Notes: generated from the sequence alone by a model not told the origin. Shown: positions 5,892-62,547, numbered from the stretch's first letter. The stretch: 64,000 bases of DNA from Thalia democratica (GCA_965202585.1 OZ241831.1:46252001-46316000), one strand, 5' to 3'. Numbers and translations are program-made.

Positions 5892-6298
5892 CCGATCATT
5901 TCTAACCCGCTATCATTTCTAACCCGTTCACTTCTAACCCGATCGTTTCTGACCCGATCACTTCTAACCCGACCATTTCTAACCCGATCACTTCTAACTC
6001 GATCACTTCTAACCTGATTACTTCTAACCCGATTACTTCTAACTCGATTATTTCTAACCCGATCACTTCAAACCGATCATTTCTAACCCGATCATTTCTA
6101 GCCTGATCACTTCTAACCCGATCACTTCTAACCCGATCGTTTCTAACCCGATCACTTATAACCCGATCACTTCTAACCCGATCACATCTAACCCAATCAT
6201 TTCTAACCCGATCACTTCTAACCCGATAATTCCAAAAAGAGCATTTCTAACCCGATCACATCTAACCTGATCACTTCTAACCCGATCGTTTCTAACCC
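5892..6298 (+). repeat. 15-bp minisatellite, consensus (C/T)TTCTAACCCGATCA, about 27 degenerate units
   Basis: Directly visible tandem array; the reverse complement of the unit (GGGTTAGAA(A/G)TGATC) forms the array at 28035-28432. Confidence 0.95.
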
Positions 6299-6816
6299 AT
6301 TCTACTTATTTTTTTTTTCTTATCTGGATTTCATACAAAAACAAACTAGTCTTAATAAAGTTATGATATATATATATATTTTTAGTTTCTTTTAAACATT
6401 ATTGTGTTAATGTTTTACGCAAAAAACTTCGTTAGTATAAATTTTATTTTTAGTATTAACTTAACATAAGTTTAATTTATTTTTATTACCTCATTTTTTG
6501 ATATTTCATCCTACACTTAATTTAAATTTTTTTCATTATTTCATATTTTTTGTTCTTTCAATCTACTTAAACAGACGTTTTTCGTTAATCATATACAATT
6601 TACTAAATCGTTTACTTTATAATGTTTTGAACTCTTCTTGTAGGATTTTAAAGTAAGCAGTTATAACTATATTTAATTAGGATATTATAGTATTTCACGT
6701 GACTATAGAAATGCTAACATAAGCAAATTTTAAAAAGTAAACCTTTACAATATTGATATTCAGATTTAAAAATCTTTATATTACGGTCTAAAAACTACAT
6801 TGTAAGTCTGTTGTAA

Positions 6817-6820
6817 ATGT
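6817..6820. repeat. Left copy of 4-bp target-site duplication ATGT
   Basis: ...taaATGT|TATAACC at the left end and ...CTTGTTATA|ATGTtg at the right end (25107-25110). Confidence 0.85.
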
Positions 6821-7499
6821 TATAACCACTGACCGATGGCTCGGTCGTAGTTAGGTTAGGTAATTGCTTATTATTGCTTTTCGCCTTAGTTTGCGACCGC
6901 GTCATGCGTTTTATGTCGTCCATCGATAAGCGTTTGGACGACATGAAATCTTAGTTAAAATATATATATATAATATTAAAACGTTCTAATATATATTCTA
7001 ATATATATTCTAATATAATTATAAAACGTTCTAATGGAACGATCAATAACTTTAATGTATTGAGCTTATTTATAATCTAGTATCTAGAAAACAACTTTAA
7101 GTGAATGGTGAATTTATATACATTTAAAAACAAAACACGACAATGTGATAAAGTAACGTGATGAAGTTCTACCACAACTGACTCGAGGTTTTCTTAAGCT
7201 TAGTGACTGTACGCTGGTTACAATTTACAAAACTCAAGCAATTCTACTATCCTTTGCAGAGCTTCTATTCCCTTTGCCCAATCCGTCAACAACCCCACAA
7301 CAACCCAAAACATCCTTTTAACACACTAAGAAAAACTTATTTATTTTTTTACTCTCTTCTCTACTTACTACGTCACGCACAAGTCTTTCTGTAATTTTCC
7401 ACTTAAAACTTTGACTCCTTTGATGTAAATTCCACTTAACTTATCTTTGACTCCTTCATTGTACTTCTCGAAACAAGTAGTAAACTACTACTTGTTATA
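6821..7499 (-). repeat. 3' LTR (679 bp)
   Basis: Matches 24428-25106 at offset 17607; I found one mismatch (7119 T vs 24726 A). Termini are the 6-bp inverted repeat TATAAC/GTTATA. Confidence 0.95.
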
Positions 7500-7519
7500 C
7501 TACCCTTCCTACCTTACTT
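7500..7519 (-). promoter_or_regulatory. Polypurine tract (PPT), sense AAGTAAGGTAGGAAGGGTAG
   Basis: Purine-rich run directly abutting the start of the 3' LTR on the sense strand. Confidence 0.85.
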
Positions 7520-7583
7520 AATTGATTTGTTTTTATCTTCTGAGTGCTAAAATATTTGAAGTTATTTTCTCGTTCTAGCTTTT

Positions 7584-7625
7584 GAAACAAGTAGAAGCTA
7601 CTACTTGTTATACTACCCTTCCCTA
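7584..7625 (-). repeat. Second copy of the PPT plus the first ~30 bp of the LTR, 113 bp upstream of the true junction
   Basis: gaaacaagtagaagctactacttgttatactacccttcc (7584-7622) vs gaaacaagtagtaaactactacttgttatactacccttcc at the 3' LTR start. Confidence 0.85.
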
Positions 7626-8184
7626 ACTTCGTTTTTTTTTTTAATAATCTAAATGAGCACTTGTAGTTTGTATTTACTTTTGCTAGGCTAAAACCTCTAC
7701 CCAACTTAAGACACTGCACCCAAAAAAAACCTCACTACAGTCGTTAGTAGAACTAAGAAAAAGTTAAATTACGAAATTAATTTTTTACAGGAAACTGTAA
7801 AACTTTACCTTAAAACATGAATTGTTCGAGACTCAAAATATGAGAAAATAAACACGAAAAAATTATGCTAGTATTTAAATTTACTGGAAGTCTCTATCAC
7901 TTCTTAATCTAAGTTTGAACAATGTTAATTTGGTTAAGCATGACAAAATAAAAAGCATTTTCATTGAAATAAAAATAAAATTCTTTAATAAAACAATAGT
8001 TTTCAGATTAATAGTTATTTTTAAATACTAAGAAAAACATTTTTTTGTAGAAATACACTAATATAGTTTTTTAAAACGATTAAAAAAATTAATTATAAGA
8101 TGTTAGCAATTACACACAATTTTTAAAACAGAAAAAAAAAATTAATTAATACCTAAGCTACAATTTGTCTTGTAAGTTCACGTA

Positions 8185-8452
8185 CACAGCTTCTCGTTGA
8201 TAGGAACCTTCCGTTGCTGGAAAAGGAAATCTCTCGGACAAGGGGTTCGTTCTTCTGGGGAAAACTCGTAAAACACAGCTTCTCGTTGATAGGAACCTCC
8301 CGTTGCTGGAAAAGGAAATCTCTCGGACAAGGGGTTCGTTCTTCTGGGGAAAACTCGTAAAACACAGCTTCTCGTTGATAGGAACCTCCCGTTGCTGGAA
8401 AAGGAAATCTCTCGGACAAGGGGTTCGTTCTTCTGGGGAAAAACTCGTAAAA
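8185..8452. repeat. 89-bp tandem repeat, 3 near-identical copies, in the 3' untranslated part of the retroelement
   Basis: Units start at 8185, 8274 and 8363 (cacagcttctcgttgataggaacc...ctcgtaaaa). Confidence 0.95.
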
Positions 8453-8511: not shown

Positions 8512-10590
8512 CTACATCGAACTCGGTTTGTCTTGTCCGAAAAACTCTGGTGTATTTAAATTTGTCTCATTTACACAAGGGAACCAATGCGACAAATGAT
8601 CTTCGTTTTTAAACGTTTCTTCTATTTCCGGAAAAGTTCTAGCTTCTTTAGAAACCGATTTCAAGGCCGTTCCCACCTGGAGGCAGTTCGAGATTCCGTG
8701 CGACTGTTCCATAACCTCGGCTGTCCCATCTCTTTCATCTCCATTTTTCCAAATCTTTGATAATAACCCTCCGTCATTTGCTACTTTCTCTTTTTCTTTT
8801 TTTATAGATGACTTCGAGATTCCGTGCGACTGTTCCATAATCTCGGCTGTCCCATCTCTTTCATCTCCACTTTTCCAAATCTTTGATAATAACCCTCCGT
8901 CATTTGCTACTTTCTCTTTTTCATTTTTTAAAGATGACTTTTGTTTTTTATTCAATTTTTTACTGTCTGTCTCAATCTCTTCCTTTCCTGTGTCTCTATA
9001 TTTCATCTTGATATTTGGTTTATCCTCGGACGCAGTTCTTTTCACGACATTGATATCAATATCTCCACATTGAATAGAAAACAGGTGGTGTGTATTTGTT
9101 TTTGCTTTGCAAAATCTCTCGAGTCCATCTTGAATGGTCAAGCAACTCATTTTTTCATCTTCTATATTTTTCAGTTTAAGCTCTTTAACTTGTTGTTTCC
9201 ATTTGACTATTTCTTTACTATGTTTTTCTTCATGCTCTTTGTTTGCCTGTTTGAGTTCCTTTAACTCTTTCAAGAGATTTGTTATTCTTAGTTTTTTAGT
9301 TCTTAGTTTTTCTTGGACGTTTTCCTTTTTTCTCTTTTGCTTATTTAATCTTTCTTGTAATATTTCAATGGTATTGTTGGCATTAAGTATTTTGTCACAA
9401 AGCTCAGTTCCTTCCTTTCTTAAATTTATTCCGTCCTGCGTTAAGTCATTTATAACTTCACTTTTTTTTCTAAGTTCGGCTTTTAACCTTTCTACTTCAG
9501 TTCCCAAAAATTCCATTGCCCCTTTCACGCTAGAATCATTAAATGATTGTACAGCTTTCTTTATGAGTACTTCTTGTAAAAGTTCCACTAACTCATTTTC
9601 TTGGAGAGTTTCTTCCCCTTCATGTGTAACATTTGAAAGATTTTTTTCATCCTCAATTACCATAACTTTTGTTGCATCCTTTTCTTTAATAACCTCTTTT
9701 TGTTTGACCATTTTCTTGACATTTTTTTGGTCGTAGGCAAGGTGAGACTCTTTAGAATTTTTAACAAAACTTCCCACATCTTCGAGGTTGTTAGATCTTT
9801 CCTTTGCAACTTCCATTTCACTTAAAGTGTGCTTTTTTAGCTTAGTTGATGATTCATTTTCCACTCCTTCAGATATCTCCGTCTCTTGCATTTGAACTTT
9901 GCTATTTTCTTTTCGTTTCTCCTCCGTCGTATGTAAAATTTTTACACCAGATTGAGTTCGTACCTTTTGTGGTTTTGTTTCTTGAATCGTACCATCTTCT
10001 TTTTGCTTTTTGTTAGTTGTCTGGGCTGCCTCTTCGCTAGTTGGCGTTCGTGCTCTTTTCGTTGGCATAGTAACCTGCTTCCCACTATTTCCTTTTTGTA
10101 TGTTATTTGTCGAGGAAAATGTCCTATCTCCTGATTGCGTTTCTACTTTTCTTGATCTCGTAGCGCTGATATTTATTTTCATATGACTCTCCTGAATATT
10201 TTTTGATGTTGTCCATGACCCTTCATTAGATTGCCATCGTCTCGATGGCATTGTATTCCTACTCACATTCCTAGTTGGTTCGTATCTTGATTTGTTGAGT
10301 CTCATAACTTCTTCTCTTCTTGGCTGGTTATTTCTTAATGAATAGTTTGATCGTCTATAATATGAGGACCTGGAAGGTGGCGTTCTTCTATTGTCCCAGC
10401 GATAATAACTATTTGTTCGACGTATAATTCTTCTGTTTTCCGTTCTACCGTCATATCTTCTATCTTCAGAATCATATTTGTCTCTTCTGTGATCACAATT
10501 TTTGTTTCCATCGATTTCTGTTAAACTATCAGTTTCGCTTGCCAACAAAGACACAGCGTCTTCGGATTTGTTCGTGCTGTTACAACTCAT
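8512..10590 (-). CDS. Retroelement ORF3, 692-aa protein of unknown function: Arg/Ser/Tyr-rich basic N-terminus, central coiled coil, duplicated 42-aa C-terminal unit
   Basis: 2.08-kb uninterrupted ORF in AT-rich DNA, ATG preceded by AAAA, same strand as gag-pol and env, inside the LTRs. No family recognised. Confidence 0.85.
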   Translation of the reverse strand: MSCNSTNKSEDAVSLLASETDSLTEIDGNKNCDHRRDKYDSEDRRYDGRTENRRIIRRTNSYYRWDNRRTPPSRSSYYRRSNYSLRNNQPRREEVMRLNKSRYEPTRNVSRNTMPSRRWQSNEGSWTTSKNIQESHMKINISATRSRKVETQSGDRTFSSTNNIQKGNSGKQVTMPTKRARTPTSEEAAQTTNKKQKEDGTIQETKPQKVRTQSGVKILHTTEEKRKENSKVQMQETEISEGVENESSTKLKKHTLSEMEVAKERSNNLEDVGSFVKNSKESHLAYDQKNVKKMVKQKEVIKEKDATKVMVIEDEKNLSNVTHEGEETLQENELVELLQEVLIKKAVQSFNDSSVKGAMEFLGTEVERLKAELRKKSEVINDLTQDGINLRKEGTELCDKILNANNTIEILQERLNKQKRKKENVQEKLRTKKLRITNLLKELKELKQANKEHEEKHSKEIVKWKQQVKELKLKNIEDEKMSCLTIQDGLERFCKAKTNTHHLFSIQCGDIDINVVKRTASEDKPNIKMKYRDTGKEEIETDSKKLNKKQKSSLKNEKEKVANDGGLLSKIWKSGDERDGTAEIMEQSHGISKSSIKKEKEKVANDGGLLSKIWKNGDERDGTAEVMEQSHGISNCLQVGTALKSVSKEARTFPEIEETFKNEDHLSHWFPCVNETNLNTPEFFGQDKPSSM

Positions 10591-11018
10591 TTTTAATTAA
10601 ACAAAAATGCTGTTAAGAAGAATAATTGTTATCCAAACGTTATTATATATATATTTTATTTATTTATTTATTTTTTTAATATTTTTATATTTTTTAACCA
10701 ACTCATGTTTTATTTTTTTATTTTTGGACAAATATTATTTTCAGTAAATTTTATAAGTTCATATTACTTACTTTACTCTATTGTTTCAATGCATTCTCAA
10801 TTTAAGTATACTGTGGCTCTGTTTTTTATTTTTTTTTTATTTTTTTTTTTTATTTTTTTTTTTATTTTTTTTTTTTTTTTGAAAGTGATGTGATGAAGAA
10901 ATAATGTGATTAATATTATAATAATTATCCCTGACCTTGTTGCTAATGAAGGAAAAAGGAAAAACAAAAAAAAATAATAAAACCAATATATACATGATCA
11001 GTAACGGCCACCTATTTC

Positions 11019-12734
11019 TCATTTTTTATCCCCCTCATTTGGTTTTTTTCCACATTTCTCCCTTAATGTTTGAATAATAACAACAACAATTAAGATTGTT
11101 GCTATAATTGTATAAATATGTCCTAAAAGTCCTAAGATATTCTTAATTTTCTTCCAAATCGAATATTTAATTTTTTCCAGCATGGCCCTCACATTGTTGT
11201 AGTCCATAGTATGCGTTTCTGCCAGTAATTCTTCTATGTTGATTCCATCACTTATATATTCTTCCTTGGTAATTAACAACAAGTTCTTGAGTTGCTGCTG
11301 TGTAACATCTTCTTCAGACCAAGAAACTTCTTGTAAGTCTTCATTTAGGTTTTCCTCTAAGATGTCGAAACTTTTTTCCTCTAGTTCAACATTTTTTATT
11401 GTAATCTTTTTCAGTGCTGGTATTTGATCGATTAAGGTATTGTTATTATATATTATCAAGCTGTTATTGAAACTAAATGTCTTTCGTTTAGTAGGTGTAA
11501 CTGTAGAGCTAATTTTTTCCGTAAGAAATCTTCCTTGGCGTAGTGATGTAAGCTTTGCTTCCGTGCCAGTATAGGCCACAAATAGTGGCCTATCTGACAC
11601 ATGACCATTATAATATAAATTAGGCTGCAAAACTGCTTGGACTTTTGAGCACCTCAGTTCTTTTAAAATCCCTCCTGCGAATATAGCCTGTACCTCTCTT
11701 TCGAGAAGATAAGACAAAACTTGAGATGGATTTAGACTTTGACTTCCCATAAGGGCTACTATATTTGCCCGTGCCATTTCACAGGTAACTAATTTAAAAT
11801 AGTTCCTAAAATTTTCGCTGTTCAAAAACGATCCATGTGCAATAGATGTAATTGTGGCTTGAATATTTCGTAGTGATGCTGGTATATTATCATCTGCAGT
11901 TCCAATTGGCTCAATGTTGCTTTCCTCAGGAATTTCCAGCACATGATTGGTCATTGTACAAAAAAATTTCGATTTTTTCTTTTGTTTTAGGCAGGCTAAT
12001 GATTTTGGTGAGCATTTCATCAGGTTAGATACAATTAAGTTTGTTTCGTCTAGTTCGAATAAGTTTCCTTTTGAAGTTTTATGAATTATTAGAGTTTTAT
12101 TTTCACTCCTCGGTATAGTTTCACAGGTTTTTTCTCTAGGTTCTACATAATTGATTCTCCAGTTTCCTGCTGTGCAAGTTTTGAATTTTCTACTGCAAAA
12201 CAATTTGCCCAACGATATGTGATGTAGTTCTTCTGTCACCACATTTTTTGTAATTGTTAGATAGTTTAATTCAACATTTTTTACTTCTATTAGGTTTCCA
12301 AACCATCCATATTCCGGTTCCAAAATGTTTTTCGTAGTCATGGATCCTTCCGCGTTTGGTAAGAGTCTCCCAACCGAAGTGAAGTGTCTTTGTTCCCACA
12401 ATTCACACTCCCTCTTTGTTACTAACTGGTGTTCCGTTCTTACTAAGTTGCAGACATTACTGCCGAAAAGGTAATGTATGCAGTTATAAGTATCTTTTGT
12501 CATTCTGCAAGCTTTTGCCCTTAAGTTATACATTTGGTTAAAAGGTTTAAAAACCCTTACTGGGTATATTTTAGTAGTGTTTCCTTTGTTTATGCATTTC
12601 CCAGGGGGTATAATTTTGAACTGTTGTATTACCTCATTCTTGCAAAGGTCTATATATACCTTCCTTGTTATATCTGAATAGACCATAGCTAAGCAAAGTG
12701 TTGTTATCCATAATGTTTTCATGACCAGCTTCAT
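11019..12734 (-). CDS. env: Env-like type I membrane glycoprotein, 571 aa, class III viral fusogen-like (chuvirus G / herpes gB / rhabdovirus G-like motifs)
   Basis: Hydrophobic signal peptide (MKLVMKTLWITTLCLAMVYS), Cys-rich ectodomain, N-glycosylation sequons (NTT, NKT, NNS, NNT), C-terminal TM (IYTIIATILIVVVII) and short basic tail. CRMTKDTYNCIHYLFG and NPSQVLSYLLEREVQAIFAGGILKELRC resemble class III fusogen motifs. Confidence 0.8.
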   Translation of the reverse strand: MKLVMKTLWITTLCLAMVYSDITRKVYIDLCKNEVIQQFKIIPPGKCINKGNTTKIYPVRVFKPFNQMYNLRAKACRMTKDTYNCIHYLFGSNVCNLVRTEHQLVTKRECELWEQRHFTSVGRLLPNAEGSMTTKNILEPEYGWFGNLIEVKNVELNYLTITKNVVTEELHHISLGKLFCSRKFKTCTAGNWRINYVEPREKTCETIPRSENKTLIIHKTSKGNLFELDETNLIVSNLMKCSPKSLACLKQKKKSKFFCTMTNHVLEIPEESNIEPIGTADDNIPASLRNIQATITSIAHGSFLNSENFRNYFKLVTCEMARANIVALMGSQSLNPSQVLSYLLEREVQAIFAGGILKELRCSKVQAVLQPNLYYNGHVSDRPLFVAYTGTEAKLTSLRQGRFLTEKISSTVTPTKRKTFSFNNSLIIYNNNTLIDQIPALKKITIKNVELEEKSFDILEENLNEDLQEVSWSEEDVTQQQLKNLLLITKEEYISDGINIEELLAETHTMDYNNVRAMLEKIKYSIWKKIKNILGLLGHIYTIIATILIVVVIIQTLREKCGKKPNEGDKK

Positions 12735-13126
12735 TATACTATCTACCTTCCAGCTTAAATTTTCTTATTTATAACCAAAACGAGAGAGGTGGGAGAAAAA
12801 AAAATAGTTCGCCAAAAAATTTTTTTTTTTAAATTTTTAATTTTTTATTTTTTTTTTTTTTTATTTTTTTTTTTTATTTTTATTTATTTTTTTTTTTTAT
12901 TTTTTTTTTTTGCCCAATCATCTTAGTATTGAGAGCGGAAAAATAACAACATCAAAAAATAAAATTAATAATAAGCAAGTAACTTTAACTTCCACATTAA
13001 TTATACTTCATATGATACACGGTAATTTTGTGTGACAATTTCAAGTGCTCGAGTTTAAAGTGACATGGTTATGGAATTTCTCAAAAAGAATCATATATCT
13101 GATATATACAAAATTAATACGATGGC

Positions 13127-13450
13127 TTAATTGGTCTCTCCCACCATTCCAAAATACGGTTGGTTATAAATGATGAAATACCTTAATTTCATCTCCAAAT
13201 TGAATAGTGAAATATCTTGAAAACTTATCATGTGAGTAATTCCTACAAAACCTATTGCGTACGAGCATTTCTCACTTACTTCGTTTTCAAAAAGGAAATT
13301 AAAATGGGTGCAGAAATTTTTTATCATATTACTGTTTGAACATTCATATAAATGAAAATTTTTATGTAAGAATTCTTTAAAGTTCTCATTCGAATTTATA
13401 TAATTATAGAAGTCTTCTCCATATACGGGGTTAATCATAAGTAAGAACAT
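13127..13450 (-). CDS. Possible small 107-aa retroelement cargo ORF, unknown function
   Basis: ATG-initiated ORF on the element sense strand, long for this AT-rich region, followed by an A-rich tract. No homology recognised. Confidence 0.35.
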   Translation of the reverse strand: MFLLMINPVYGEDFYNYINSNENFKEFLHKNFHLYECSNSNMIKNFCTHFNFLFENEVSEKCSYAIGFVGITHMISFQDISLFNLEMKLRYFIIYNQPYFGMVGETN

Positions 13451-14205
13451 TACAATTTTATCTAAAATAGTTATAATTTTTAGGGTGATTACTAATCAAT
13501 ATGCCTACAATAAATTTTACTTTGCTAAATTAGCTCAATTAAATTGAAGATGTAAAAATAAAATAAAAAAATAAAAAAAATTAGTGAGGGATGGAATAAC
13601 AATATGGCTAAAAAAAATACAAAACAAAACATTTTCTGAGGTAAAACTACTTAATTAATTCAGTAATTCATAAAAAACTATAAACTTGTGTTTCGTAATT
13701 ATAAATATAGACAATCATATTTAAACATTCATTTTTATTATTAATTATATCTGCTTATTTGCTATTTAAATCTAAAAAAAAATAACAGATATTATGATAT
13801 TGAAATTCAATATTATTTAAAGTTAAGTAATTAGAAAAATTACATAAAAAACAAAAAACTTATAACAAAACCTAAATATTGTTTTTTCAATTTTGTAATA
13901 AACTTGATGTCCGTTTTTCCATGACCCTTTCAACTTCGTCGTTTTTTTTCTGACAGATGTCTCGTGGAATTGTCAAGCAAAAAGGTATATTCTTGTCTTC
14001 ATCATGGACGTTTGAATTTAAAAGCAAAGTTTCTTTCGTAGAAACATCATCATAAAAAAATATTTCATTTGGAGTATCTTTTTCCAAATATTTTCGAGCA
14101 GTTTAGCTCGGAATGTTTTCATAGTTCAACTATCTTTATAAAATAATAAATATTTTTATTTCTATTTAAGAAGTTTAATTAATTTCTATTTAGGTGAGTT
14201 CCCTC

Positions 14206-14505
14206 TCAACTTATTCGTCCCCACATATCTTCCATATCAACTTATTCGTCTCCACACATATTCCATATTAACTTTTTCGTCTCCACACTTCTTCCATATC
14301 AACTTATTCGTCTCCACACATATTCCATATCAACTTATTCGTCTCCACACATATTCCATATCAACTTATTCGTCTCCACACTTCTTCCATATCAACTTAT
14401 TCGTCCCCACACATATTCCATATTAACTTATTCGTCTCCACACATATTCCATATCAACATATTCGTCCCCACACATATTCCATATCAACTTATTCGTCCC
14501 CACAC
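14206..14505. repeat. 31-bp minisatellite (TCAACTTATTCGTC(T/C)CCACACATATTCCATA), about 9.7 copies, inside the retroelement
   Basis: Directly visible tandem array between gag-pol and env. Confidence 0.95.
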
Positions 14506-17500
14506 AACGACTATCTTTCAGTTAATATTACTGGAGCTGATTACCCTTCCAAACTTAAAAAAAATTTTACCTCACATAAAATGATAAATATTTCTGAGTT
14601 CAGCCAACGAAGTTCGTTTAAAATATTGACAAATTGATAAGTTTCATTATGTAGTGTCACGGGAATAGAATTGCATCCTCCAGACTACTAACTTTTAGTT
14701 TTTTATTTGTTTAAAGTTTATTTATTAAATGTTTTTTTTTTTATGTTTAACATAATGTCATGATTTGACAACTTTAAAACACTTGATTTGTGGTTATTCT
14801 ACTGGCTTAAAATAAAAAACTATATTTATATTATTTTTATGATATACGATGCACTAAGATTAATATAATTAAGTGAATACTTAAATTCACTGTTAACATG
14901 CCATGCGAGGTTGTTTACGAGTTAAGTAGTTAAACTAGCAATTAAAAAAAAAAAAGACCAGAACTTTGCGCTTTTTTAAAAAAAAACAAAATTTCTTCAT
15001 CATAAATGAATAACATCAACAATATATATATACAAAAAAAAAAAAAAAAATAAGATAAATTAATATGAAAACTACAACAGGCAGACTATACATATAGTAA
15101 CTATAAATCATAATATATTTCTAAGCATGACATAATGAGAATAAACTTAATAAGTAATTTGTAGTTTAAGACAATGAAATTTCTACATCGATGCTCAAAC
15201 CCATAAAATGCCTTATGCATAATATCAACATAACTGTTACCTAAACAAATCACAACCGCTTGTGAAGCTATAATCAAAAGTTTATATACTTATTTTTTAT
15301 ACACTTTTTAAGCAAACATTAGTGGAATTTTTTTAGACATTAAGTAAGATTGTTAAAAAATAGATAAAGCTACCCAAACTTTATATTTTTTTTATAATTC
15401 ATTTTAATAAACTTAATTAATAAGTTATTAAAGCAAAATATTTATTATATTATTTAGATAATTTAATGAAAATAATTAAATGATAACAGTTTTTTAATCT
15501 AAATTCACAGAAATATGTTTGATAGTTATTGTATCATTATAGCAATCAATAGTTAAATATTAAATGTATTAATTAACTTTTTACTAAATTATCATTATAA
15601 CTTTATCAATAGATAAAAATCACTTTAAGTTATCAAAATAGCTTTAACCCTACAGAGAAAACTAATTATTAAACTAGAAGTTTGCCGTACAATGTGACGT
15701 AATATATCAACAAATTGAGTAAGTATTTCTTTTAAAATTATGTTACAAGAGACTAATAAGACAATTAGTTAATAAAATTAAGTGTTTTGGTAAGAAAAAC
15801 TTTATAGTACTTTTAGGTTCTGTTTTGTTATCGATTTAAAGTCAAACGCCATACTAAATAAATTAAAGCCAGATGTTATGAAAATTTAACAATTGTTATT
15901 TACTCCTAACGTTTTAGATTTTATCGATAAGAAAATAAAATCCGAGTGAAATTTAAATTGATAAGAAAGTTTAACTTTTACGACAGTAACTATAAAAAAT
16001 TATCAGATGCTTGTAAAACGAAAATAGCAAGTTTTATTTTGTTATTGTTTGAAAAATTTATTTTTAACAATTTTTTATGTGAAAATTTACAAGAACTGTC
16101 AATCATTACTCCTATTTGTTTATGATTAAAGTACATTTTTACTGCTGTAACTTATTCTTAAAAAAAATTCGATTTTTTATACGACGGGAATTTTATCACA
16201 AACAGGTGCGGTTAAATAATTTAAACTCCTTCCGTTGTGTTAACAATCTTTAAAACATTGTTAAAAAAGATTTAAAGTTAGGCTATAAGATTGTATTGTA
16301 ATAATTTAAAGTTTGAAAATAAATATTCTTAAAGTTATTAAGTATTGTGTAGTTATTATACACAAATTGTAATTAGAATATACTAAAACATTCTAAACTT
16401 CTTATATTCTTAATGAAAATCCACTAACAAAAATAATAGCGACATAATTATACACATGACATAGTTAAATAGTTAAATGTAAACAACAAAACTTTTTTAT
16501 TTTTTTTTATTAAATAATATTTGAAACTTTTTTATGTTTTTTTTATCTTTTAATTTTATATTTTTCTTATTTATTCTTTATTTTACCAACTAAACATATG
16601 AAAATAAAATAACTTAAAATTTAGTATATTGAGTAACAAAAAAACATTTAAATGTTTTGATTATTTTGAACAAAATGAATCTAATAAATATTAGTTTGCA
16701 CTTAAGCAAAATCGAAGTTACCTAACTATACATTATGTCAAAATTATATAAAAAATCATTTTATAAATATTATCACTGTTCTGTTTAATTATTATCATCT
16801 CTAATATCTCGTATCAATATTTTATAGTTACGGTGTTAAACATAACAACACATCAAAAAAAATTAAAAAAAAAATTTCTAGTTTTAAGAATTGAAGTCTA
16901 TAATGATAACAATAATTATTGAGTGAAGTCATAACTGTTAATATTATTCGTAAAGTAATTTGTTTTAAAACGCAGGATAACGTTTGATGTGTTTAAATGT
17001 GTTTCTAATAATGTTCCTCTATTTTTTCAAATGAAAGTATTCAATTTTAATTAACCCACATACTACAATAACATATAAGCTTAAACTTTGGATAATAAAT
17101 TATAATTTAAGCAACATATATTTGTTTAATAATATAAAATTTCAACATCTCTACTTATTGTTTATTTAATTATAATACCAAGTAGTAATAATAAAAAATA
17201 TATAAAAAAAAATTATCTAAATAATGAAAAAATAAAATAGTTACTAACAGTTTAATTGATTTCTTCCGAATGAGCTGAATTATGTAGAAACAAGATTTCT
17301 TCAAAACTGGTCTAAAAGTTATTCCTATTCGTCTGCATCGTGACCTTCCTTTCATATTCCCTCACGCGCAGAATCAATAAGTATCCTAGATGTTGTCCTG
17401 CTTCCTGTCGATCGCTTAAATTTTCCTAAATGTTTCATAATCGACTATTTAACACTATTTCCCGCTAAGTCTACTGTGGCTCTGCATAATTTTTAGTTTC

Positions 17501-19403
17501 CATGTTCTAACTTAGGTCCAACGATAAGAAAAAGTAATGTATTTGACCTCTCCCAATTTCTAGAATAGATTTTCTAAAAATAGTGTTAAGCTCTGCTGTC
17601 CATTTTCTATACTTCATAAAGCTTCATATGGCCAACAAACAAATACGTAAAAATGTTTATCCACCAAAATTTTGTTTTCCATGTTCTCCTTTTAGGCCCA
17701 ACGATAAGAAAGGATAAAAGTTAATATAAAAGTAAAAACTACTGCCTTATTGAAGTATGAAATTGACGTGTTGTAAAACAACGCGTACTTTATTAATTGA
17801 TTATTATTCGCAACTCAAGAATTTAAATTATGGTACTATAATTTATCATAGATTAAAACATTTTTAAAATCATTAACAATTAAGTTAACATAAGTAGTGA
17901 GATTTCCTTACAAATATGTAATAATATAAAAAAAATAATATAATAATATTTAACTCTTTACTATTATAATACATATTTAACAAAACACAAAAAAAATCTC
18001 AGTATGCTACATATAATTCTAATGTAACTAAAAAAAATTTTGAAGTCTGAGCTTTCCTTTCAGTTGATTTTTTTTATAAATGTTTCTTGAAAAGCAGATA
18101 TATATGATCACAACAAAAGAAAAAAATCTTAAATATCTTCTATCAAAATTGTAACTACTTGATAAAAGTTTAATTATCTTCAGTTTCTTGTTCAATTGAA
18201 TTCCCCTGACTCCTATACTTGAAATAATTCAATTTTGAATAAGTTGAAAAGTTTAACTTAATAAAAGCACTCAAGTTTTCTTAGCTTCTTAAATGATCCA
18301 AGTGCTGGCAAAATAAATTTATGCCACAACTTTTTAAATATTTAAATTTAAAAAGTTTTGTGTAAACATTTTCATTAATCTAACAATTTCTAATTTTAAG
18401 TATCGCGTTTTTTATTTTTTTTAATTTTATTATATTTTATTTATCTAAATAGTTACAAATATTAATCAATTATTCGCCGACAAGCTAAAAATTTATACTA
18501 AATAATATCAGCTGGGAATATTATTACAAAATAAAACAAAATAAAAACATTTATTTTTCAAAATCCTTCAAAAAATTTAAAAAATTTGTTTCACTAATTA
18601 TATTCCCATGTTAATTAAATGTCACAATTTCGAATACAAATCCTTTGTGTATAACATCGCATATTAAAAAAATTAAAATATTCGTTTGCACTTATTAACA
18701 AAATTTATTAAAAAACAAATTTTATTCAAAAGCTAATTTATTATTCTCATGCTTTACTAATTTCTATTGACAAAAAGTTTCATATTATATTACAAAGGTG
18801 TTAAATGAAAGCTATAGCATCTTATGCATTTATATAACATGTTAAATAAAATCTGAAACAATATTTATTTACTCATGCCCATCGATGCTTTATACTCGTA
18901 ACATCGATACAAGATTTATAAATACTGTTAATACATAATATAATACATTATTCTAAAATTGATAGTTTATAATATTAATTATTCAAAAAATTTTTTTATA
19001 AGTTTTATGATTTTTGGAAATTTTTATTAATTTTTATTATTTTTTTTATATTTTTTATTTTTATTTTATTTTATTTTATTTTTATTAAAAATTTTTTTAT
19101 TATTATTTATGGAAAAAATAAAAAAAAATTAATTACATGCAATAAGATGAAAAAGTAACACAACAAGTTGATTACAATCGCTTGTTTAGGCTTAAACAGG
19201 CCTTACTAAATTAACACAAAAAAAATCTTAATAAATAAGTATTTCGCACTCAATTGCTTATTGTAACGAATCACACAGCTATGCTTTAATATTAAAACTA
19301 TTTTTATATATCATGCTAACTAAAACAATATTGTACGAATAAAATATTTTGAACATGTCAATCTGATTAATGTTAGTTCCTACTCTCAATTCAAAACTTA
19401 CTT

Positions 19404-22400
19404 TTAATCGGATTCATCGTATGTGGTAGTGTCTATATCTGCGTAGTTTAGTTCAATATTTCTTTCCCTCAAATTGTATGCAGCCGTAGGTCCCAATTTG
19501 TTACCCTCCGCGTCGAGTTCCTCACGAGGGAAATACCCTTTTACGTTTCTTAATGAGACTTTTATCGGTTTACCATTTTTTTCTATGATCATGGAGTGAT
19601 CGGAATAAGAAAGTATTGGGTACGGGCCGTGATATTGTGCACTCAGATGTGATTTATTCTTTTTTCGAATCCACACTTTCTCACAGTCAAAAAGACCAGG
19701 CTCATAATAAGTATGCTTTTCTGTGTAGCATTTATGTTTTCTATATGCATTCGACATCGTATGAAGGAAGAAATTTGTTTCATAAGTGTCAATCTCCTTA
19801 TGGTTGTTGCTGACCTTGTTGAAAAATATCCTACCACTTATATTCGTGCACGTTCCTAATGCTAATTGCGACGGAGTAAACAGATTCCCTTCAATAAACG
19901 AGTTGTTAATGGATGTAGTTATCAGAGGTAAGAGCATAGACCATTTTTCTTTATCGACTAACGTTCTTAATGCAACATTAATACTTCTGTGTTGTCTTTC
20001 AACAAAACCATTACTTTCCGGACTATAAGGTGGTACGTATCGATGGTCTATACCTAATTGTTGGAATACTTCCTTGAGAAGGCTATTATTAAACTCACAT
20101 CCATTGTCTGTGACAATAACTTGTGGTACTCCAAAAATCCCGCACCACGATTGTATCAGCGCATTTTTTACTGTCTGAGCTTTCTTATTAGGTAAAGGTG
20201 TAGTAACCAAAAATCCGGTACCTCTGTCTTTGATAGTCATAATATATTTGTTATCATCTGAAATTACATTCATTGGACCAATAAGATCCACATGAATAAA
20301 TTGGAAACGTTCTGTATTCTTTGGATACAGACCTATTTTAGGTCTATTGTGTCTAAAAGTTTTAGTAGCTTGGCACTCGGCACAGCTCTTACACCAATAT
20401 TTTATGTCAGTCTTCAAAGTTGGCCACCAGTAATCCTTTGCAGTCGCTATTATAGATCTTTCTACTCCCAAATGTAGATATCCGTGAGCTAATTCAAATG
20501 CTGTCAAACGTAATATCGAGGGTAAGATTATACGTTGGTTATCTCCTTCTTGGATTACTGCTAAGTCCTCCGATCCCACATATTTTATTTCCTTTTTTAA
20601 TTCTTTGGCTTTCTTTAATAATAAAGGTTCGTTTTTTTGAAGTTGGGCTATTTCTAACTTATTTAATGATGCCGCTGTTATTAACTCTTCTTCATTTTCA
20701 GTCAGATCATCATCTGTGTCAGAACAGCTCAAATCTGTGTTTGAGTTATGAACATAGTCTGGATCGTTATCTTGTAGGGCTATGTGCATGGATGTGCTAT
20801 GAGGTGGTCTGCTTAATATATCGGCTACTATGTTATCGGCACCAGCTATATGTTTTATAAAAGGGTTAAACTCCTTGATTGCCGCGATGTAACGTTGTTC
20901 CATTGGTGACTGATCTTTAATTGGATTTGTGATTGCTTTTTCTACTGACTGACTGTCGGTCCTAATAATAAGTTCACGACCAATTATCCTACTTTGAAAA
21001 TGTTTCAAACTTAAATACAGAGCCCTTAGTTCTTTATAAAAAGTAGATCTATATCTCTTAAGGCTAGGAAGTTTTTTTGAAAAGAACGCAAGAGGCCTTT
21101 TATTTCCATCTATTCCTTCCTGCTCCAACACCGCCCCCACATGAGTTTCGGATGCGTCTGAGTATAATATTAATGGCATATTGTGATCTTCATAAGCTAA
21201 GGTTGCTGCCTTTGCCAACACCTTCAATGTATCCTTATATGCATTAATTTGGAATTGATTTAGTTTTAGTGGTTTTTTGTTAGTAGCTTTGGGTCCTCCA
21301 GACAATTCGTTAAGTGGTGCTATGATTTCAGATAATCTTGGAATGTGATGGTAATAATAATTGACTAAACCGATGAATCTTTTTAGTTCCTTTCTATTTG
21401 TTGGCCTCGGTAAATTAATAATTGCTTCCACTTTGCTATCCATGACACCTATACCATCGGCTCCAATTGAATGTCCTAAAAAGTCTACTTTTGATTCTGC
21501 TATTATACACTTCTTAGCGTTCAAATACAGTCCACTATCTTGTAATGTTTGAAGCACCTTTCTAAGATGCAATTCGTGATCTTTTTTAGTTTCACTAAAA
21601 ACAAGTATGTCATCCAGATAAACATAAACAAAACCTGTGCAAGGAGTCAAAATATCTTCCATCATCATCTGAAAACGCATCGGCGCATTCATGAGGCCAA
21701 ATGTTGTGCGATGAGGGATAAACACACCATGATGAGCAATTATAGCAGCATATTTTTGAGAGTTTGGGTGAATTGGAAGACTGTAGTACGCTTCTTTTAA
21801 GTCAAGACAGGAAAAAATTTTTGACCCATTTGGAATAAACTCAGGAAGCTCATCAATGCGAGGCAATGGGTATGAGATTGGGTTTGTGTGGGCATTTAAG
21901 GTTGTATAATCTATGCAGATTCTTATATTTCCATCCTTTTTTGGTACCATCGTAATTGGTGATACATATATTGCTTCTTGTCCTCTTGACATTGCCCCTC
22001 TTATTATTAAATCGTTAAAATTTTCCTCAACTATTTTACGTCTCATTCCGTTGCATTTACGTGCTTTAATCATTCTTGGTACTAGATTATTTACTTTTAT
22101 CTCAAGTGAATGTCCATGTTTAACTGGTTTATTGTAATCTGGTTCCATCGTAAGTTCTTTGAACTCCTCAAGTATGCTTTTTATATTGTTTTTGTCATCT
22201 GATTTCTCTTGGTAACTAGTTATTTTGAGTTTTTTACATGGTCCCTCAGCAGCTGTGGTTAATTCCCCAGCTGTATATAGTCTGGCTTTACGATTTAAAT
22301 TGTATTCAAGAATTTCGGAAGTGTGAGGTGAAATAATTAGTTTGTTAGCTTTGAGTATATCCAATCCAATAATTCCATAGTCCCCCGATTCCTTGGTAAC

Positions 22401-24551
22401 CCAAAATGTGGCTTTTTTTAAAAGCATATTTCCAATGCTGAGATCCACATCTACACTCCCTATTGGATAAATGGTTGAGTTTCCCAAACCCTTTATTGTT
22501 TTACTTTTTGGCTGGAAATATTGATTTATTCCATTAGTTAACATTTTCGGTAAGATAGACACTTCACTACCTGAATCGATTAATAACAAGACTCCCGATT
22601 TTTTTTCCAGTGCGAATAGGAGGTTTTTAGGAAGATTTTTTATATCGGTTGTTTCTGTTTTATTTTCTAAAACTGAGCATTGTTTAACCGGAACATTACT
22701 TTTGTCCAAAACCAATTCGTTTATCTTTTTCAAAATATTTTCTAGATTGTTGTTTATTTGATCTGTATTTCCCGAACATGTAGGCATTGTACTTTCATGA
22801 ATATCATTCTCTTTCGTTCCTTTCATGCTTACCGTTAATGAGCTCTTTTGATTTACAAAACTATTTTCTGTGTTATCCACTGGTATTGCTTTGTAACTGC
22901 AGTTTTTATTATCTTCGTCGTATAACTTAGTTTCCTTGTCCTTTGTTAAGTCTGTTTGCATAACAGCAACGTTGCAACTTTTCTGTTGTTGGTGATTCGC
23001 AATTAGATGATTCATCTTACAATCTTTCCTATTACAAGAGTAAGCCTCTTTTCCGTATCGCCAATGTTGATAGCATAAGTCACCCTGGTTTGTAAACGGA
23101 TTTGGTTTTGCACTAGTTTGTTGGTAGTTCCAATTATTGTTATTGTTTTTATTGTGTGAGTAAAAATCTGGAATTTGATGATTTCGATACGGTCTAAAAT
23201 TTCCGTTGTTGTTATTGTTGTAATTAAAATTATTGTTTTTATGTCCGATATTTCGATTGTTATACCTTCTAGGATTTGTACTATAAATTTGATTAGTTCG
23301 TGGCGTTCTATCATAATTTACCGGATTGGAAGGTATTTTTTCCTCTTGACAATTCCAAATACCTTGTGTCCTTCTCTTGAAGATATCATAGTTTTCATTA
23401 AAGTTTTCTCTGATTTTTGTTTTCAATGAAAGTGGACTTAAGTAGTAGCAGAAAAATTTTATGCGGTCAACTTTGCTGCTTTCTGCGAATTTAGTTGCAT
23501 CTGCGAGGAATACACCAAACGGGGTAGAAGCATCATATTGTGGTACCTTACTGAGAATATCGCTCAGAGAGTCGTCCCTATTAACACAAAAATCACAGAA
23601 TGATTCGAAGTTTCGATGTTCCCTGTCCACTAATCTATAAAAATTCGAAACATCCTCAGTTGGCCATTTTTCGATAAGTATGTTATACTTCACGTAATCA
23701 TCACGTATGTTAAGTCGATGAAATTCTTCCTGGAAATACCCCAATACATCTCTAGGATTTTTTACTTTCTCTATTCTGTTGAATTTTTTTATTAATCTGT
23801 CCATTTCCATATATTTTCCATATACTGTATGGTTTGAGTTAATATTATCAAAATTTCTATTATAAATATTTTGGTTCTGCATATAATCTTCGTCGCAAAA
23901 GTTGTTTTTATTTGCATACATGTTATTACTGATGTGATGCGTCATGTTATTATCTGTATGTATAAAGTTTTGACTTGTGATCAGATTTTCCAGTTTATTA
24001 TTATTTTCACAAATTTTCTCCCTTATTTTACGAATTTGTTCTTCCGCCTGTTGTCTTCTAAGGTTTTCTTCGCTTATCTTAAGTAATTTATTCATTTCTT
24101 CTATTTGTATTTCATAGTCTGTTTTCTTAATAATGTTTAAATTATCCTGGGTCGAAATGTTATTCTGTTGAAAAAAAATTTTTTGATCATTTTCTAACTT
24201 CGTCGAAGGTATTTTATCCATTTCTGTTTTTTTATTTGCCTGTATAATTCGATCATTAAATAAAGTTCTAGCTTCGTCATAAGTTGGTGTATTGACCTGA
24301 AAGGTTAATCCTTCTGTATCAGTTTTTTTACCTTCTTCGCCCTTATTTTCAACATTTCTATCATTCGGTCCGCTATTCGCTGTTTCATCGAAAGGTGGTA
24401 CATCTGTGCTTGTAGGGAGGACGCCATTATAACCACTGACCGATGGCTCGGTCGTAGTTAGGTTAGGTAATTGCTTATTATTGCTTTTCGCCTTAGTTTG
24501 CGACCGCGTCATGCGTTTTATGTCGTCCATCGATAAGCGTTTGGACGACAT
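19404..24551 (-). CDS. gag-pol: Gag-Pol polyprotein, 1715 aa, single frame, Ty3/Gypsy, CsRn1/Kabuki-like
   Basis: CHCC-type finger CYQHWRYGKEAYSCNRKDC (23019-23075); protease LIDSGS (~22570); RT SPITMVPKKDG...YLDD (21609-21620); RNase H YSDAS (~21155); integrase H-x3-H...C-x2-C, HVDLIGP, TDNG, VER and GPY (~19620). Confidence 0.97.
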   Translation of the reverse strand: MSSKRLSMDDIKRMTRSQTKAKSNNKQLPNLTTTEPSVSGYNGVLPTSTDVPPFDETANSGPNDRNVENKGEEGKKTDTEGLTFQVNTPTYDEARTLFNDRIIQANKKTEMDKIPSTKLENDQKIFFQQNNISTQDNLNIIKKTDYEIQIEEMNKLLKISEENLRRQQAEEQIRKIREKICENNNKLENLITSQNFIHTDNNMTHHISNNMYANKNNFCDEDYMQNQNIYNRNFDNINSNHTVYGKYMEMDRLIKKFNRIEKVKNPRDVLGYFQEEFHRLNIRDDYVKYNILIEKWPTEDVSNFYRLVDREHRNFESFCDFCVNRDDSLSDILSKVPQYDASTPFGVFLADATKFAESSKVDRIKFFCYYLSPLSLKTKIRENFNENYDIFKRRTQGIWNCQEEKIPSNPVNYDRTPRTNQIYSTNPRRYNNRNIGHKNNNFNYNNNNNGNFRPYRNHQIPDFYSHNKNNNNNWNYQQTSAKPNPFTNQGDLCYQHWRYGKEAYSCNRKDCKMNHLIANHQQQKSCNVAVMQTDLTKDKETKLYDEDNKNCSYKAIPVDNTENSFVNQKSSLTVSMKGTKENDIHESTMPTCSGNTDQINNNLENILKKINELVLDKSNVPVKQCSVLENKTETTDIKNLPKNLLFALEKKSGVLLLIDSGSEVSILPKMLTNGINQYFQPKSKTIKGLGNSTIYPIGSVDVDLSIGNMLLKKATFWVTKESGDYGIIGLDILKANKLIISPHTSEILEYNLNRKARLYTAGELTTAAEGPCKKLKITSYQEKSDDKNNIKSILEEFKELTMEPDYNKPVKHGHSLEIKVNNLVPRMIKARKCNGMRRKIVEENFNDLIIRGAMSRGQEAIYVSPITMVPKKDGNIRICIDYTTLNAHTNPISYPLPRIDELPEFIPNGSKIFSCLDLKEAYYSLPIHPNSQKYAAIIAHHGVFIPHRTTFGLMNAPMRFQMMMEDILTPCTGFVYVYLDDILVFSETKKDHELHLRKVLQTLQDSGLYLNAKKCIIAESKVDFLGHSIGADGIGVMDSKVEAIINLPRPTNRKELKRFIGLVNYYYHHIPRLSEIIAPLNELSGGPKATNKKPLKLNQFQINAYKDTLKVLAKAATLAYEDHNMPLILYSDASETHVGAVLEQEGIDGNKRPLAFFSKKLPSLKRYRSTFYKELRALYLSLKHFQSRIIGRELIIRTDSQSVEKAITNPIKDQSPMEQRYIAAIKEFNPFIKHIAGADNIVADILSRPPHSTSMHIALQDNDPDYVHNSNTDLSCSDTDDDLTENEEELITAASLNKLEIAQLQKNEPLLLKKAKELKKEIKYVGSEDLAVIQEGDNQRIILPSILRLTAFELAHGYLHLGVERSIIATAKDYWWPTLKTDIKYWCKSCAECQATKTFRHNRPKIGLYPKNTERFQFIHVDLIGPMNVISDDNKYIMTIKDRGTGFLVTTPLPNKKAQTVKNALIQSWCGIFGVPQVIVTDNGCEFNNSLLKEVFQQLGIDHRYVPPYSPESNGFVERQHRSINVALRTLVDKEKWSMLLPLITTSINNSFIEGNLFTPSQLALGTCTNISGRIFFNKVSNNHKEIDTYETNFFLHTMSNAYRKHKCYTEKHTYYEPGLFDCEKVWIRKKNKSHLSAQYHGPYPILSYSDHSMIIEKNGKPIKVSLRNVKGYFPREELDAEGNKLGPTAAYNLRERNIELNYADIDTTTYDESD
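24409..24426 (-). promoter_or_regulatory. Primer-binding site TGGCGTCCTCCC...
   Basis: TGG starts 1 nt after the 5' LTR end; complementary to a tRNA ending ...GGACG-CCA. Primer identity not established. Confidence 0.75.
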
Positions 24552-25106
24552 GAAATCTTAGTTAAAATATATATATATAATATTAAAACGTTCTAATATA
24601 TATTCTAATATATATTCTAATATAATTATAAAACGTTCTAATGGAACGATCAATAACTTTAATGTATTGAGCTTATTTATAATCTAGTATCTAGAAAACA
24701 ACTTTAAGTGAATGGTGAATTTATAAACATTTAAAAACAAAACACGACAATGTGATAAAGTAACGTGATGAAGTTCTACCACAACTGACTCGAGGTTTTC
24801 TTAAGCTTAGTGACTGTACGCTGGTTACAATTTACAAAACTCAAGCAATTCTACTATCCTTTGCAGAGCTTCTATTCCCTTTGCCCAATCCGTCAACAAC
24901 CCCACAACAACCCAAAACATCCTTTTAACACACTAAGAAAAACTTATTTATTTTTTTACTCTCTTCTCTACTTACTACGTCACGCACAAGTCTTTCTGTA
25001 ATTTTCCACTTAAAACTTTGACTCCTTTGATGTAAATTCCACTTAACTTATCTTTGACTCCTTCATTGTACTTCTCGAAACAAGTAGTAAACTACTACTT
25101 GTTATA
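24428..25106 (-). repeat. 5' LTR (679 bp), containing the first 41 codons of gag
   Basis: Near-identical to 6821-7499; followed on the sense strand by the PBS. Confidence 0.95.
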
Positions 25107-28034: not shown

Positions 28035-28432
28035 CGGGTTAGATCGGGTTAGAAACGATCAGGTTTGAAATGATTGGGTTAAAAATGATCGGGTTAAAAA
28101 TGATTGGGTTAGATATGATCGAGTTAGAAATTATCGGGTTAGAAATGATCGGGTCAAATCTGGTTGGAAATGATCAAATTAGAAATGATCTTGTTAGAAA
28201 TGATCTTGTTAGAAATGATCGGGTTAGAAATGATCGGGTTAGAAGTGATCGGGCTAGAAGTGATCGGGTTAGAAGTGATCGGGTTAGAAGTGATCGGGTT
28301 AGAAGTGATCGGGCTAGAAATGATCGGGTTAGATATGATCGGGTTAGAAGTGATTGGGTTGGAAGTGGTCGGGTTAGAAATGATCGGGTTAGAAGTGATC
28401 GGGTTAAAAATTATAACGAGTTAGAAATGATA
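28035..28432 (-). repeat. 15-bp minisatellite GGGTTAGAA(A/G)TGATC, about 26 units, inverted relative to the 5892-6298 array
   Basis: Directly visible; accounts for the spurious repetitive ORFs 28070-28510 and 28164-28424. Confidence 0.95.
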
Positions 28433-61380: not shown

Positions 61381-62547
61381 TAATATTAACAAATAAAATT
61401 AGAATGAAAATTAAAAATCAATACCAACAAAAAAATAAATAGAAGTTATTGTTATAATAAGACTGATATAAACAAAAATAATAATAAAATATAAAAATAG
61501 TAACAATACTAGTCTCTTTGTTGATATCAATATTTATATATTTTTTTCTTCTTTTTATAACTTATTAGATATTATTTATATACTTTATCAACATTTTTGA
61601 TATTGATGCTATTGTTATTATTATTAGTGATTAATTTTGACACTATTTTATCATATTTCGTCCCTGGTATGTCACTTAGCTCTAAATAATTAATTTACTT
61701 TACATGCAAAAATATTCTGAAAATATGGATGAAAAAAAGTAATATACACATAAAAAAGGTTAAATTTTAAGGGACATGTATAAAAACTACATCAAATTAA
61801 GAAAAAACATAGAACTTTACAATTATAACTTAAATAGTAAGACTAAAATAATAAATAAATACTTTGTTATTTGAGCCATAACTTGGCTAACAAATAGTGT
61901 TGTTGTAAGTACTGCCAGAAAAAAAAATTCCCTAAATCTTTCATTTTAAATTGAAAAAAAAAAACATAAAACCAGGAAATAAAATAAATAACTTTAATTT
62001 AAAGAAACAAATTTAAAAAATGATGCAAAGCTTAAATCATGTTTTTATTTATTTGGTATTTTTGTGACAAAAACAATAATAATACTAAAATGACTATTTT
62101 TTCAAAGGATCTTTGCGTCAAAAATAAGCCCCAATAATTTTTGACTTTTACTTTGTTTAAAAACTAATGAAACGTTCTATTAAAGGTAAAAAAAAAGGTT
62201 TTTAAATTAATAATGGGAAAGTTACGCCATAAGGAAGTGAAGCTATATTGGAAAAAGAGGAAATTTGAAATCCTCTGAGAATCTAGAGTTGTTAATCTAC
62301 ACTAAATTAGAACATTTCTTCCAGAACTTATGTAAAGAAAATTCAGGTTTAATAAAAAATTGTTCTTGAACAAAAGTAATCAGACTCTTTAGTAGCAGCA
62401 AATTAACATTGTTTCTAATGTATGCAAAAAAAGAGACAATGTTTAAAATATACTTTTTGAAAATGGAAACAAAGCAGATTATTTTCTTTTAAAGCTTTTT
62501 GCTTTCTAATTGAATTTAAATGCTTTTTAGATACAAAATAATTTTAA

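Follow-up and report, generated by a model that had tools for sequence, protein, structure and literature searches.

Accessory regulatory genes 3' of env are a mark of the complex vertebrate retroviruses. On the minus strand of a 64,000-nucleotide stretch of the Thalia democratica genome (GCA_965202585.1 OZ241831.1:46252001-46316000; the whole stretch is called the window below), an env-bearing Ty3/gypsy element of 18.3 kb also carries a large open reading frame 3' of env. The question raised by this locus is whether that frame is a gene of the element and, if so, what its product may do. The frame is called ORF3 here and the families of related elements are labeled A to G, with A denoting the family of the window; these are working names of this analysis. 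The features discussed below are collected in Table 1.

Table 1. Position of the element, its genes and the features of ORF3 within the window
Feature	Position	Strand	Remark
3' LTR, 679 bp	6821..7499	-	
5' LTR, 679 bp, termini TATAAC..GTTATA	24428..25106	-	
4-bp target-site duplication (TSD) ATGT	6817-6820 + 25107-25110		flanks the LTRs
Primer-binding site (PBS) TGGCGTCCTC, complementary over 10 nt to the 3' end of host tRNA-Asn(GTT) plus CCA	24417..24426	-	
Polypurine tract (PPT) adjoining the 3' LTR	7500..7515	-	
gag-pol, single 1715-aa ORF, ATG inside the 5' LTR	19404..24551	-	
pol-env spacer, 6.7 kb, AT-rich, with a 31-nt tandem array at about 14137-14568	12735..19403	-	also in other full-length copies
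Small ORF, 107 aa, hydrophobic start, just upstream of env	13127..13450	-	
env, 571 aa, N-terminal hydrophobic leader, C-terminal TM	11019..12734	-	
Candidate 3' splice acceptor: TTAACAG after a pyrimidine run, 19 nt upstream of the ORF3 start codon	10610..10626	-	
ORF3, 692-aa orphan ORF, probable accessory gene	8512..10590	-	ATG to TAG
Acidic/hydrophobic N-terminal motif EDAVSLLASETDSL, ORF3 aa 9-24; sister-family counterpart EDRLSLFGSDDESL	10519..10566	-	
Arg/Ser/Tyr-rich basic low-complexity segment, ORF3 aa 35-130	10201..10488	-	predicted disordered
Long predicted helix with heptad pattern, ORF3 aa 355-496 (putative coiled coil)	9103..9528	-	AlphaFold2
Three predicted beta-strands, low confidence, ORF3 aa 502-531	8998..9087	-	pLDDT about 66-70 vs about 40 in two models
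In-frame tandem duplication, 126 nt (42 codons), ORF3 tail	8687..8938	-	1-3 units among copies
Three 89-nt tandem units, 3' UTR	8184..8450	-	1-4 units in young copies

The element is young, its two LTRs differing at one base, and the claim of the preliminary description that 692 codons stand open inside a young element was borne out, with the frame uninterrupted on the minus strand. The pol domains follow the order PR-RT-RH-IN at Pfam positions 655-734 (PR, below cut-off), 869-1029, 1101-1228, and 1344-1511. Because gag starts inside the LTR (24428-24551), its frame includes the primer-binding site, and the first 42 codons of gag recur in the 3' LTR; a gag start within the LTR was also seen in families B and C, and the LTR termini are TATAAC..GTTATA, not TG..CA. 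A second copy of the polypurine tract plus the first LTR bases lies at 7583-7625, about 100 nt inside the 3' UTR, and long A-rich tracts occur on the sense strand before ORF3 (10822-10881), before env (12821-12916), and after pol (19003-19101).

The product of env is likely a class III (herpes gB-like) fusogen, judging from profile matches that all lie below curated cut-offs: Glycoprotein_B (herpes gB) matched the env of the window and 4 of 11 relatives (E=0.005-0.011), and the rhabdovirus G fusion domain matched 4 of the 11 relatives (E=4e-4 to 0.03). A profile search of the PDB with env was empty. The 107-aa frame just upstream is possibly a second accessory gene or an exon; it is open in 16 of the 19 copies that hold it and also in an old copy at 80% identity, which differs by 21 nonsynonymous (N) and 13 synonymous (S) changes and no stop codon.

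Elsewhere in the window, two 15-nt tandem arrays in inverted orientation (5892-6302 and 28042-28431) flank the region that holds the insertion, and a long palindrome lies at 62543-63228. An open frame of 286 codons on the minus strand (29507-30367), GC-richer than its flanks, encodes a hydrophobic stretch and, after it, a segment resembling a coiled coil, and matched no Pfam family above cut-off. A short exon-like frame (46954-47214, minus strand) presumably resembles an RRM segment of PTB/hnRNP-L; Pfam gave nothing for it.

The length of ORF3 is far beyond chance, as the longest open frame in 2x500 Markov simulations of the same DNA reached at most 331 codons and each of the other five frames across ORF3 contains 15 to 69 stops. 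The predicted protein is basic as a whole (pI 9.2, net charge +19). Its residues 35-130, net charge +16, had been described as RS/RY-rich; the density of arginine, serine, and tyrosine is indeed high (25%, 14%, and 8%), but the segment contains just six RS/SR dipeptides and is therefore Arg-rich low complexity and not an RS domain. No RRM was found in ORF3 by Pfam either, so that neither element of an SR/RS-domain splicing factor (an RRM plus RS repeats) is in place. The absence of a TM segment and of a signal peptide was reproduced, the highest 19-residue hydropathy window reaching 0.41.

A charged disordered region followed by a heptad-rich segment had also been described, and AlphaFold2 agrees with that order. 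Without an alignment, residues 1-324 score pLDDT <50 nearly throughout, which predicts disorder, and the helix at 355-496, which has Leu/Ile/Val at heptad spacing, scores about 80-96 over most of its length. A second model, of the helix-plus-strand region of a sister copy with a 12-row alignment, gave a helix of ~165 residues at pLDDT 80-98 and strands at ~40, so the beta part became no firmer. A prediction of a two-copy ORF3 complex scored 0.30 against a mark of 0.32 and is evidence neither way on self-association. Family A ORF3 contains the basic clusters KRAR, KKQK, and KRKK and two overlapping, weak NES-like patterns. Two features had escaped the preliminary description, namely the 126-nt duplication in the tail and a 13-codon in-frame deletion in the sub-lineage of the window. 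The TTAACAG of the candidate acceptor before ORF3 is kept in 22/22 family A copies; an in-frame gag-ORF3 splice fusion was rejected, as a stop sits two codons before the ORF3 ATG.

Searches for homologues agree with the earlier statement that ORF3 belongs to no recognised family, there being no match in Pfam, the PDB, or 1.84 billion representative proteins that would place it in one. The whole protein matched 0 Pfam families at E<=1. A phmmer search of the 1.84 billion representatives returned seven hits, all of them 57-97% identical pieces of its own family, and a word-index protein search (7993 candidates of 380-1211 aa scored) returned two proteins, both near-identical family members. The Atlas yielded no homologue (its best scores, A 0.75 and B 0.86, are no more than leads), generic coiled-coil Pfam matches ranged from E 0.06 to 3, and one PDB match was to ELKS (E=0.043). 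The fold search was meaningless, since top-hit rmsd values in BFVD were near 60-70 Å and the whole model is of low confidence. No homology to Rev, Rex, or CERV appeared in Pfam, PDB sequences, the representatives, or BFVD, and neither sequence nor fold connected ORF3 with any RNA-binding domain. A resemblance to viral nucleocapsid proteins or phosphoproteins had been suggested as well and found no backing, as neither profile nor fold recognised a viral N or P protein (chuvirus/Mononegavirales); P proteins diverge so strongly that such searches can miss them, and an N fold is at odds with the predicted disorder of ORF3. No host parent gene was found in the own genome, scans of metagenome and viral contigs with the env alignment found no relative, and the env relatives from other organisms (P0004-P0006, 56-64% identical) have no known ORF3 context. 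As to a structured RNA response element, the 89-nt repeat, the only candidate folded, is no more stable than its shuffles (z=0.1 and 1.2), and Rfam gave 0 hits.

The genome itself (an AT-rich assembly of 802 Mb) holds 87 ORF3 matches. In all 22 copies that were cut out, env lies directly upstream of ORF3, and other copies align along the whole length of the element. ORF3 is fully open in 10 and env in 12 of these 22 other copies. It follows that ORF3 is not a host-gene fragment confined to one copy, the outcome that the preliminary description had named as speaking against it. Both LTRs lie inside the fetched stretch in 8/22 copies, which span 16.4-18.5 kb with LTR pairs 97.3-100% identical, and matching 4-bp TSDs were found in five of these eight; the 18.3-kb layout is thus the family's own. 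ORF3 occurs in sub-families with nucleotide identity as low as about 75%. Seven of eight partial loci checked further lie in LTR, gag, or env context; the remaining one (L072, 38-42% identity) has no such context, matches an element-type tail, and carries stops. In three copies (C7c, C1a, and C8b; L005-L008, L043-L044), PPT-end sequence and not a TSD precedes the 5' LTR, which suggests tandem elements sharing an LTR.

The env-ORF3 stretch is present in two organisms from two studies, runs X3 (possibly the source sample) and X5 covering 30/30 bins, and marine metagenome records include close relatives of the family. One marine metatranscriptome yielded contigs over about half of ORF3, in six listed pieces for which DNA carry-over is possible, and another yielded contigs over env and the intergenic region only. 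Because the word shares of the two are small (0.12 and 0.09), carry-over is possible, and there was no silent-stretch control, we do not count these contigs as evidence of transcription.

Is the frame maintained by selection? Among young copies (the window plus 18), shared variants give ORF3 a dN/dS of 0.78 (p=0.33 against 1), compared with 0.11 for env in the same set and 0.20 for pol in 13 copies; env stands at 0.11-0.15 overall, i.e., under purifying selection. Pairwise values between the window and 10 intact copies range from 0.34 to 1.36, none significant. A clearer picture came from a set of old and young copies together (ORF3 codons 1-557 in 35 rows, namely the window and 34 copies, one of which did not align). 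Variants found in at least three copies comprise 128 N, 0 stop, and 54 S changes, and singletons comprise 341, 34, and 77. The N/S contrast between the two classes corresponds to an odds ratio of 0.49 for ORF3 (p=5e-4) and 0.19 for env, and stops are depleted among the recurring variants (p=5e-5). The absolute dN/dS with old copies included is 0.79, not below 1 (p=0.15), so that significance is confined to the comparison with singletons. A simple site model puts the singletons at 1.62, an effect of private mutation being biased from GC to AT (without strand bias), and the contrast, rather than the absolute value, is therefore the valid measure. Deaminase-type hypermutation was rejected, private G>A and C>T changes being alike (99/440 vs 56/299, p=0.23).

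Indels tell a mixed story. Of the nine that recur in at least three copies, four are in-frame and five are single-base shifts in A-rich runs (p=0.42), and a stop at codon 133 is common to two copies; the large indels that define sub-lineages (39 and 126 nt) all preserve the frame. The frame of ORF3 is kept and about half of its amino-acid changes are removed, a degree of constraint as expected for a largely disordered accessory protein, and purifying selection on ORF3 is real but weak. The claim to a selected gene, for which the preliminary description had looked to dN/dS, survives narrowly: the value for young copies is indistinguishable from 1, and selection is seen only in the contrast with private mutations and in family B.

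In an env search of the own genome, 76 of 263 candidates were scored and 14 elements or 3' halves were then fetched. Further env families at 50%, 38%, 37%, 36%, 31%, and 28-29% identity were found among the candidates scored; in all, at least seven distinct gB-like env families have intact copies in this genome. Family B, whose env is 50% identical to that of A, has an ORF of 393-428 aa about 350 nt after env in 3/3 elements. Its dN/dS is 0.46-0.60, with p<0.05 in five of six pairs (e.g., 0.47 at dS 0.21, p=4e-4), next to 0.14 for B env, and its plan is that of A: an acidic N-terminal motif, a charged low-complexity linker, a heptad segment, and a basic tail. No post-env ORF of at least 100 aa was found in one element each of the five other families, where the gap between env and LTR is 0.6-1.4 kb. 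These elements measure 8.9-11.1 kb, compared with 18.3 kb for A and 16.5 kb for B, a correlation of size with ORF3 that has just two families, themselves related, behind it.

The A and B proteins share no BLASTP-significant similarity (best E=0.19), and the Arg/Tyr segment is missing in B and therefore cannot be a defining feature. Their best 16-mer match anywhere pairs the two N-termini (SEDAVSLLASETDSLT and SDDRLSLFGSEDESLM); in a post hoc test, 7 and 1 of 3000 shuffles reached its score. In trees that held only families of this genome, A and B form an env clade, with both alternatives rejected by the AU test (p about 2e-4), and the two families have the PBS start and LTR end in common. An acceptor-like pyrimidine run ending in ACAG stands 20-35 nt before the ATG in both, and the C-terminal KRRKRH/KRKRH is kept in B-type ORFs that are just 37-63% identical over that stretch. 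The A and B ORFs are probably homologous, having diverged beyond alignment, though they may also be independent captures. We do not claim a recombinant env-ORF3 cassette; the pol tree puts A with C/D, but A+B is not rejected there (p-AU 0.30).

Several B-type loci are of note in their own right. One (L023, G000:C10:22493600-22503599) has the 3' end of env and the post-env ORF duplicated in tandem, both ORF copies being open and 90% identical. Four others (L074, L075, L079, and L080) have nearly identical gag/pol and post-env ORF fragments about 37-58% identical to that of B, hinting that 3' modules are exchanged. Family B also has its own pol-env ORF of 130-257 aa, conserved in four elements (L021+L022; L075:4629-5399) and unrelated to the A spacer by tblastx.

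Taken together, we consider it very probable that ORF3 encodes a real accessory protein of the element. That it is an element-encoded accessory factor had been proposed at the outset, and the proposal was strengthened here: ORF3 travels with env, stops are depleted among its inherited variants, the sister family has a selected counterpart, and no host gene matches it. ORF3 would thus be the third, weakly constrained gene of an env-bearing Ty3/gypsy family. As to its role, a soluble protein with basic clusters, an Arg-rich segment, a coiled coil, a likely message of its own, and a long RNA to serve fits best with a trans-acting nuclear RNA regulator, and our tentative preference, by analogy with Rev or CERV, is for a nuclear, self-associating RNA-binding regulator. 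The protein could be translated from a spliced subgenomic RNA made with the candidate acceptor just upstream of its ATG and could oligomerise through the coiled coil. Its basic clusters might direct nuclear import and its Arg-rich segment, which the B protein lacks, might bind RNA; both features are recognised by composition. Acting in trans on element RNA, ORF3 would help the very long unspliced transcript (roughly 17 kb, with internal acceptors) to escape splicing or nuclear retention.

Two close rivals have to be weighed against such a regulator. ORF3 may instead be a counter-defence factor, an antagonist of silencing or restriction whose high turnover mixes purifying and diversifying selection. 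Its amino acids change about 4-7x faster than those of env and pol with the reading frame preserved, the low identity (about 40%) of B-type ORFs next to nearly identical gag/pol suggests turnover of the 3' module, and its position is that of foamy-virus bel2/bet as described in the accessible part of PMC5210030. We nevertheless consider this unlikely, because no segment has a dN/dS significantly >1 among variants in at least three copies, and the higher N/S of singletons means that disorder and AT-biased mutation explain the fast change. Somewhat more doubtful is a structural linker, matrix- or tegument-like or a P-type scaffold, that ties capsids to Env or to the transport machinery. The P proteins of negative-strand viruses combine a short motif at the N-terminus with extended disorder, a coiled coil, and a small module at the C-terminus, a plan that ORF3 resembles, and ORF3 is tied to an env clade and sits right behind env. 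However, five env-bearing families with multiple intact env copies manage without it, it has no membrane anchor and no meaningful BFVD fold match, and its NLS-like clusters point to the nucleus.

Two further readings, in which ORF3 does nothing for the element today, are less likely than these. It is rather improbable that ORF3 is a once functional and now dispensable cargo of family A, drifting almost neutrally in an element that copies itself inside cells. A young-copy dN/dS of 0.78-0.85, the stop common to two copies, and the in-frame deletion and duplication that arose recently in the sub-lineage of the window would all suit such drift, but there are 0 stops among the 182 variants found in at least three copies, ORF3 is intact about as often as env despite its greater length, the large sub-lineage indels keep the frame, and the sister ORF is under purifying selection. 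Least of all do we credit the capture of part of a host coiled-coil gene that does nothing for the element: the weak coiled-coil Pfam and ELKS matches and the locus without element context nearby (L072) are what it has to offer, against the lack of any cellular homologue in 1.84 billion representatives, the presence of ORF3 across sub-families to about 75% identity, and the element-type tail and stops of L072 itself.

A selected, family-wide orphan gene 3' of env suggests that an organisation like that of complex retroviruses arose in parallel in an invertebrate lineage. Young env families with ORF3 (16-18 kb) and without it (9-11 kb) occur in one genome and offer a natural comparison for the contribution of the gene, and the case shows what gag-pol-env surveys overlook when they limit gap and element length. 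With more reserve than for the regulator itself, we raise the possibility that a marine-invertebrate clade of gB-type errantiviruses is independently 'complex', with elements of 16-18 kb in which accessory ORFs flank env. The downstream ORF would represent a new Rev-like or counter-defence family with a short conserved N-terminal host-binding motif, missed by survey filters.

The nearest known systems are the gB-type ('ancient') Ty3/gypsy errantiviruses of invertebrates (Chary and Hayashi, PMC13524379), with which the element shares, as far as the accessible part of that paper describes them, pol order, gag-pol-env arrangement, a probably class III-like env, near-identical copies, and a tRNA PBS. 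It differs from them in its 18.3-kb length, its 6.7-kb pol-env spacer, and its large post-env ORF. The filters given there (a POL-ENV gap of at most 1 kb and, outside insects, a first filter of 10 kb with later extensions of 3-5 kb) mean that an element with a 6.7-kb gap would largely have been missed; the main text makes no mention of an accessory or extra ORF downstream of env, and its element table may list a relative. We found no paper in the openly accessible literature that describes a large ORF behind env in a gB-type Ty3/gypsy element of an invertebrate. The earlier view that such an ORF is atypical for Gypsy elements holds insofar as five other env families lack it, and falls short insofar as LTR elements can capture ORFs downstream of env according to the available portion of a review (PMC6431247), so that there is precedent for the arrangement itself.

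Foamy-like fish ERVs (AcERV, DrFV-2; PMC5210030, accessible text) and foamy-virus bel/tas/bet resemble the present case in genomes of >17 kb and orphan ORFs on either side of env, and the fish ORFs also resemble it in being similarly placed, without TM, with dN/dS of 0.1-0.8 and no detectable homology between families. In contrast, those are vertebrate Retroviridae, whereas the present element is Ty3/gypsy with a probably class III-like env, and nothing in the sequences was found to link the two. Accessory ORFs, some coiled-coil or nuclear (sORF1), are likewise described in the accessible parts of reports on bdelloid LTR elements, Ogre, and Burro (PMC5408684, PMC6431247) and on MDG1 sORF1/2 (PMC11952523). 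Unlike the 400-700-aa orphan found here after an intact env, these extra ORFs mostly stand in place of env, code for enzymes or apoptosis domains, or lie upstream of gag with a length of about 100 aa. The functional model for the preferred reading is CERV of the Caenorhabditis elegans element Cer1 (PMC10309623), a Ty3/gypsy accessory protein for which the accessible text reports a leucine zipper, an NLS-like KRKK, and predicted oligomers. CERV, however, has exons in common with gag as well as M and G domains that are folded and a Cys loop, whereas ORF3, in which no such domains were found, is a separate 3' ORF whose product is predicted to be mostly disordered.
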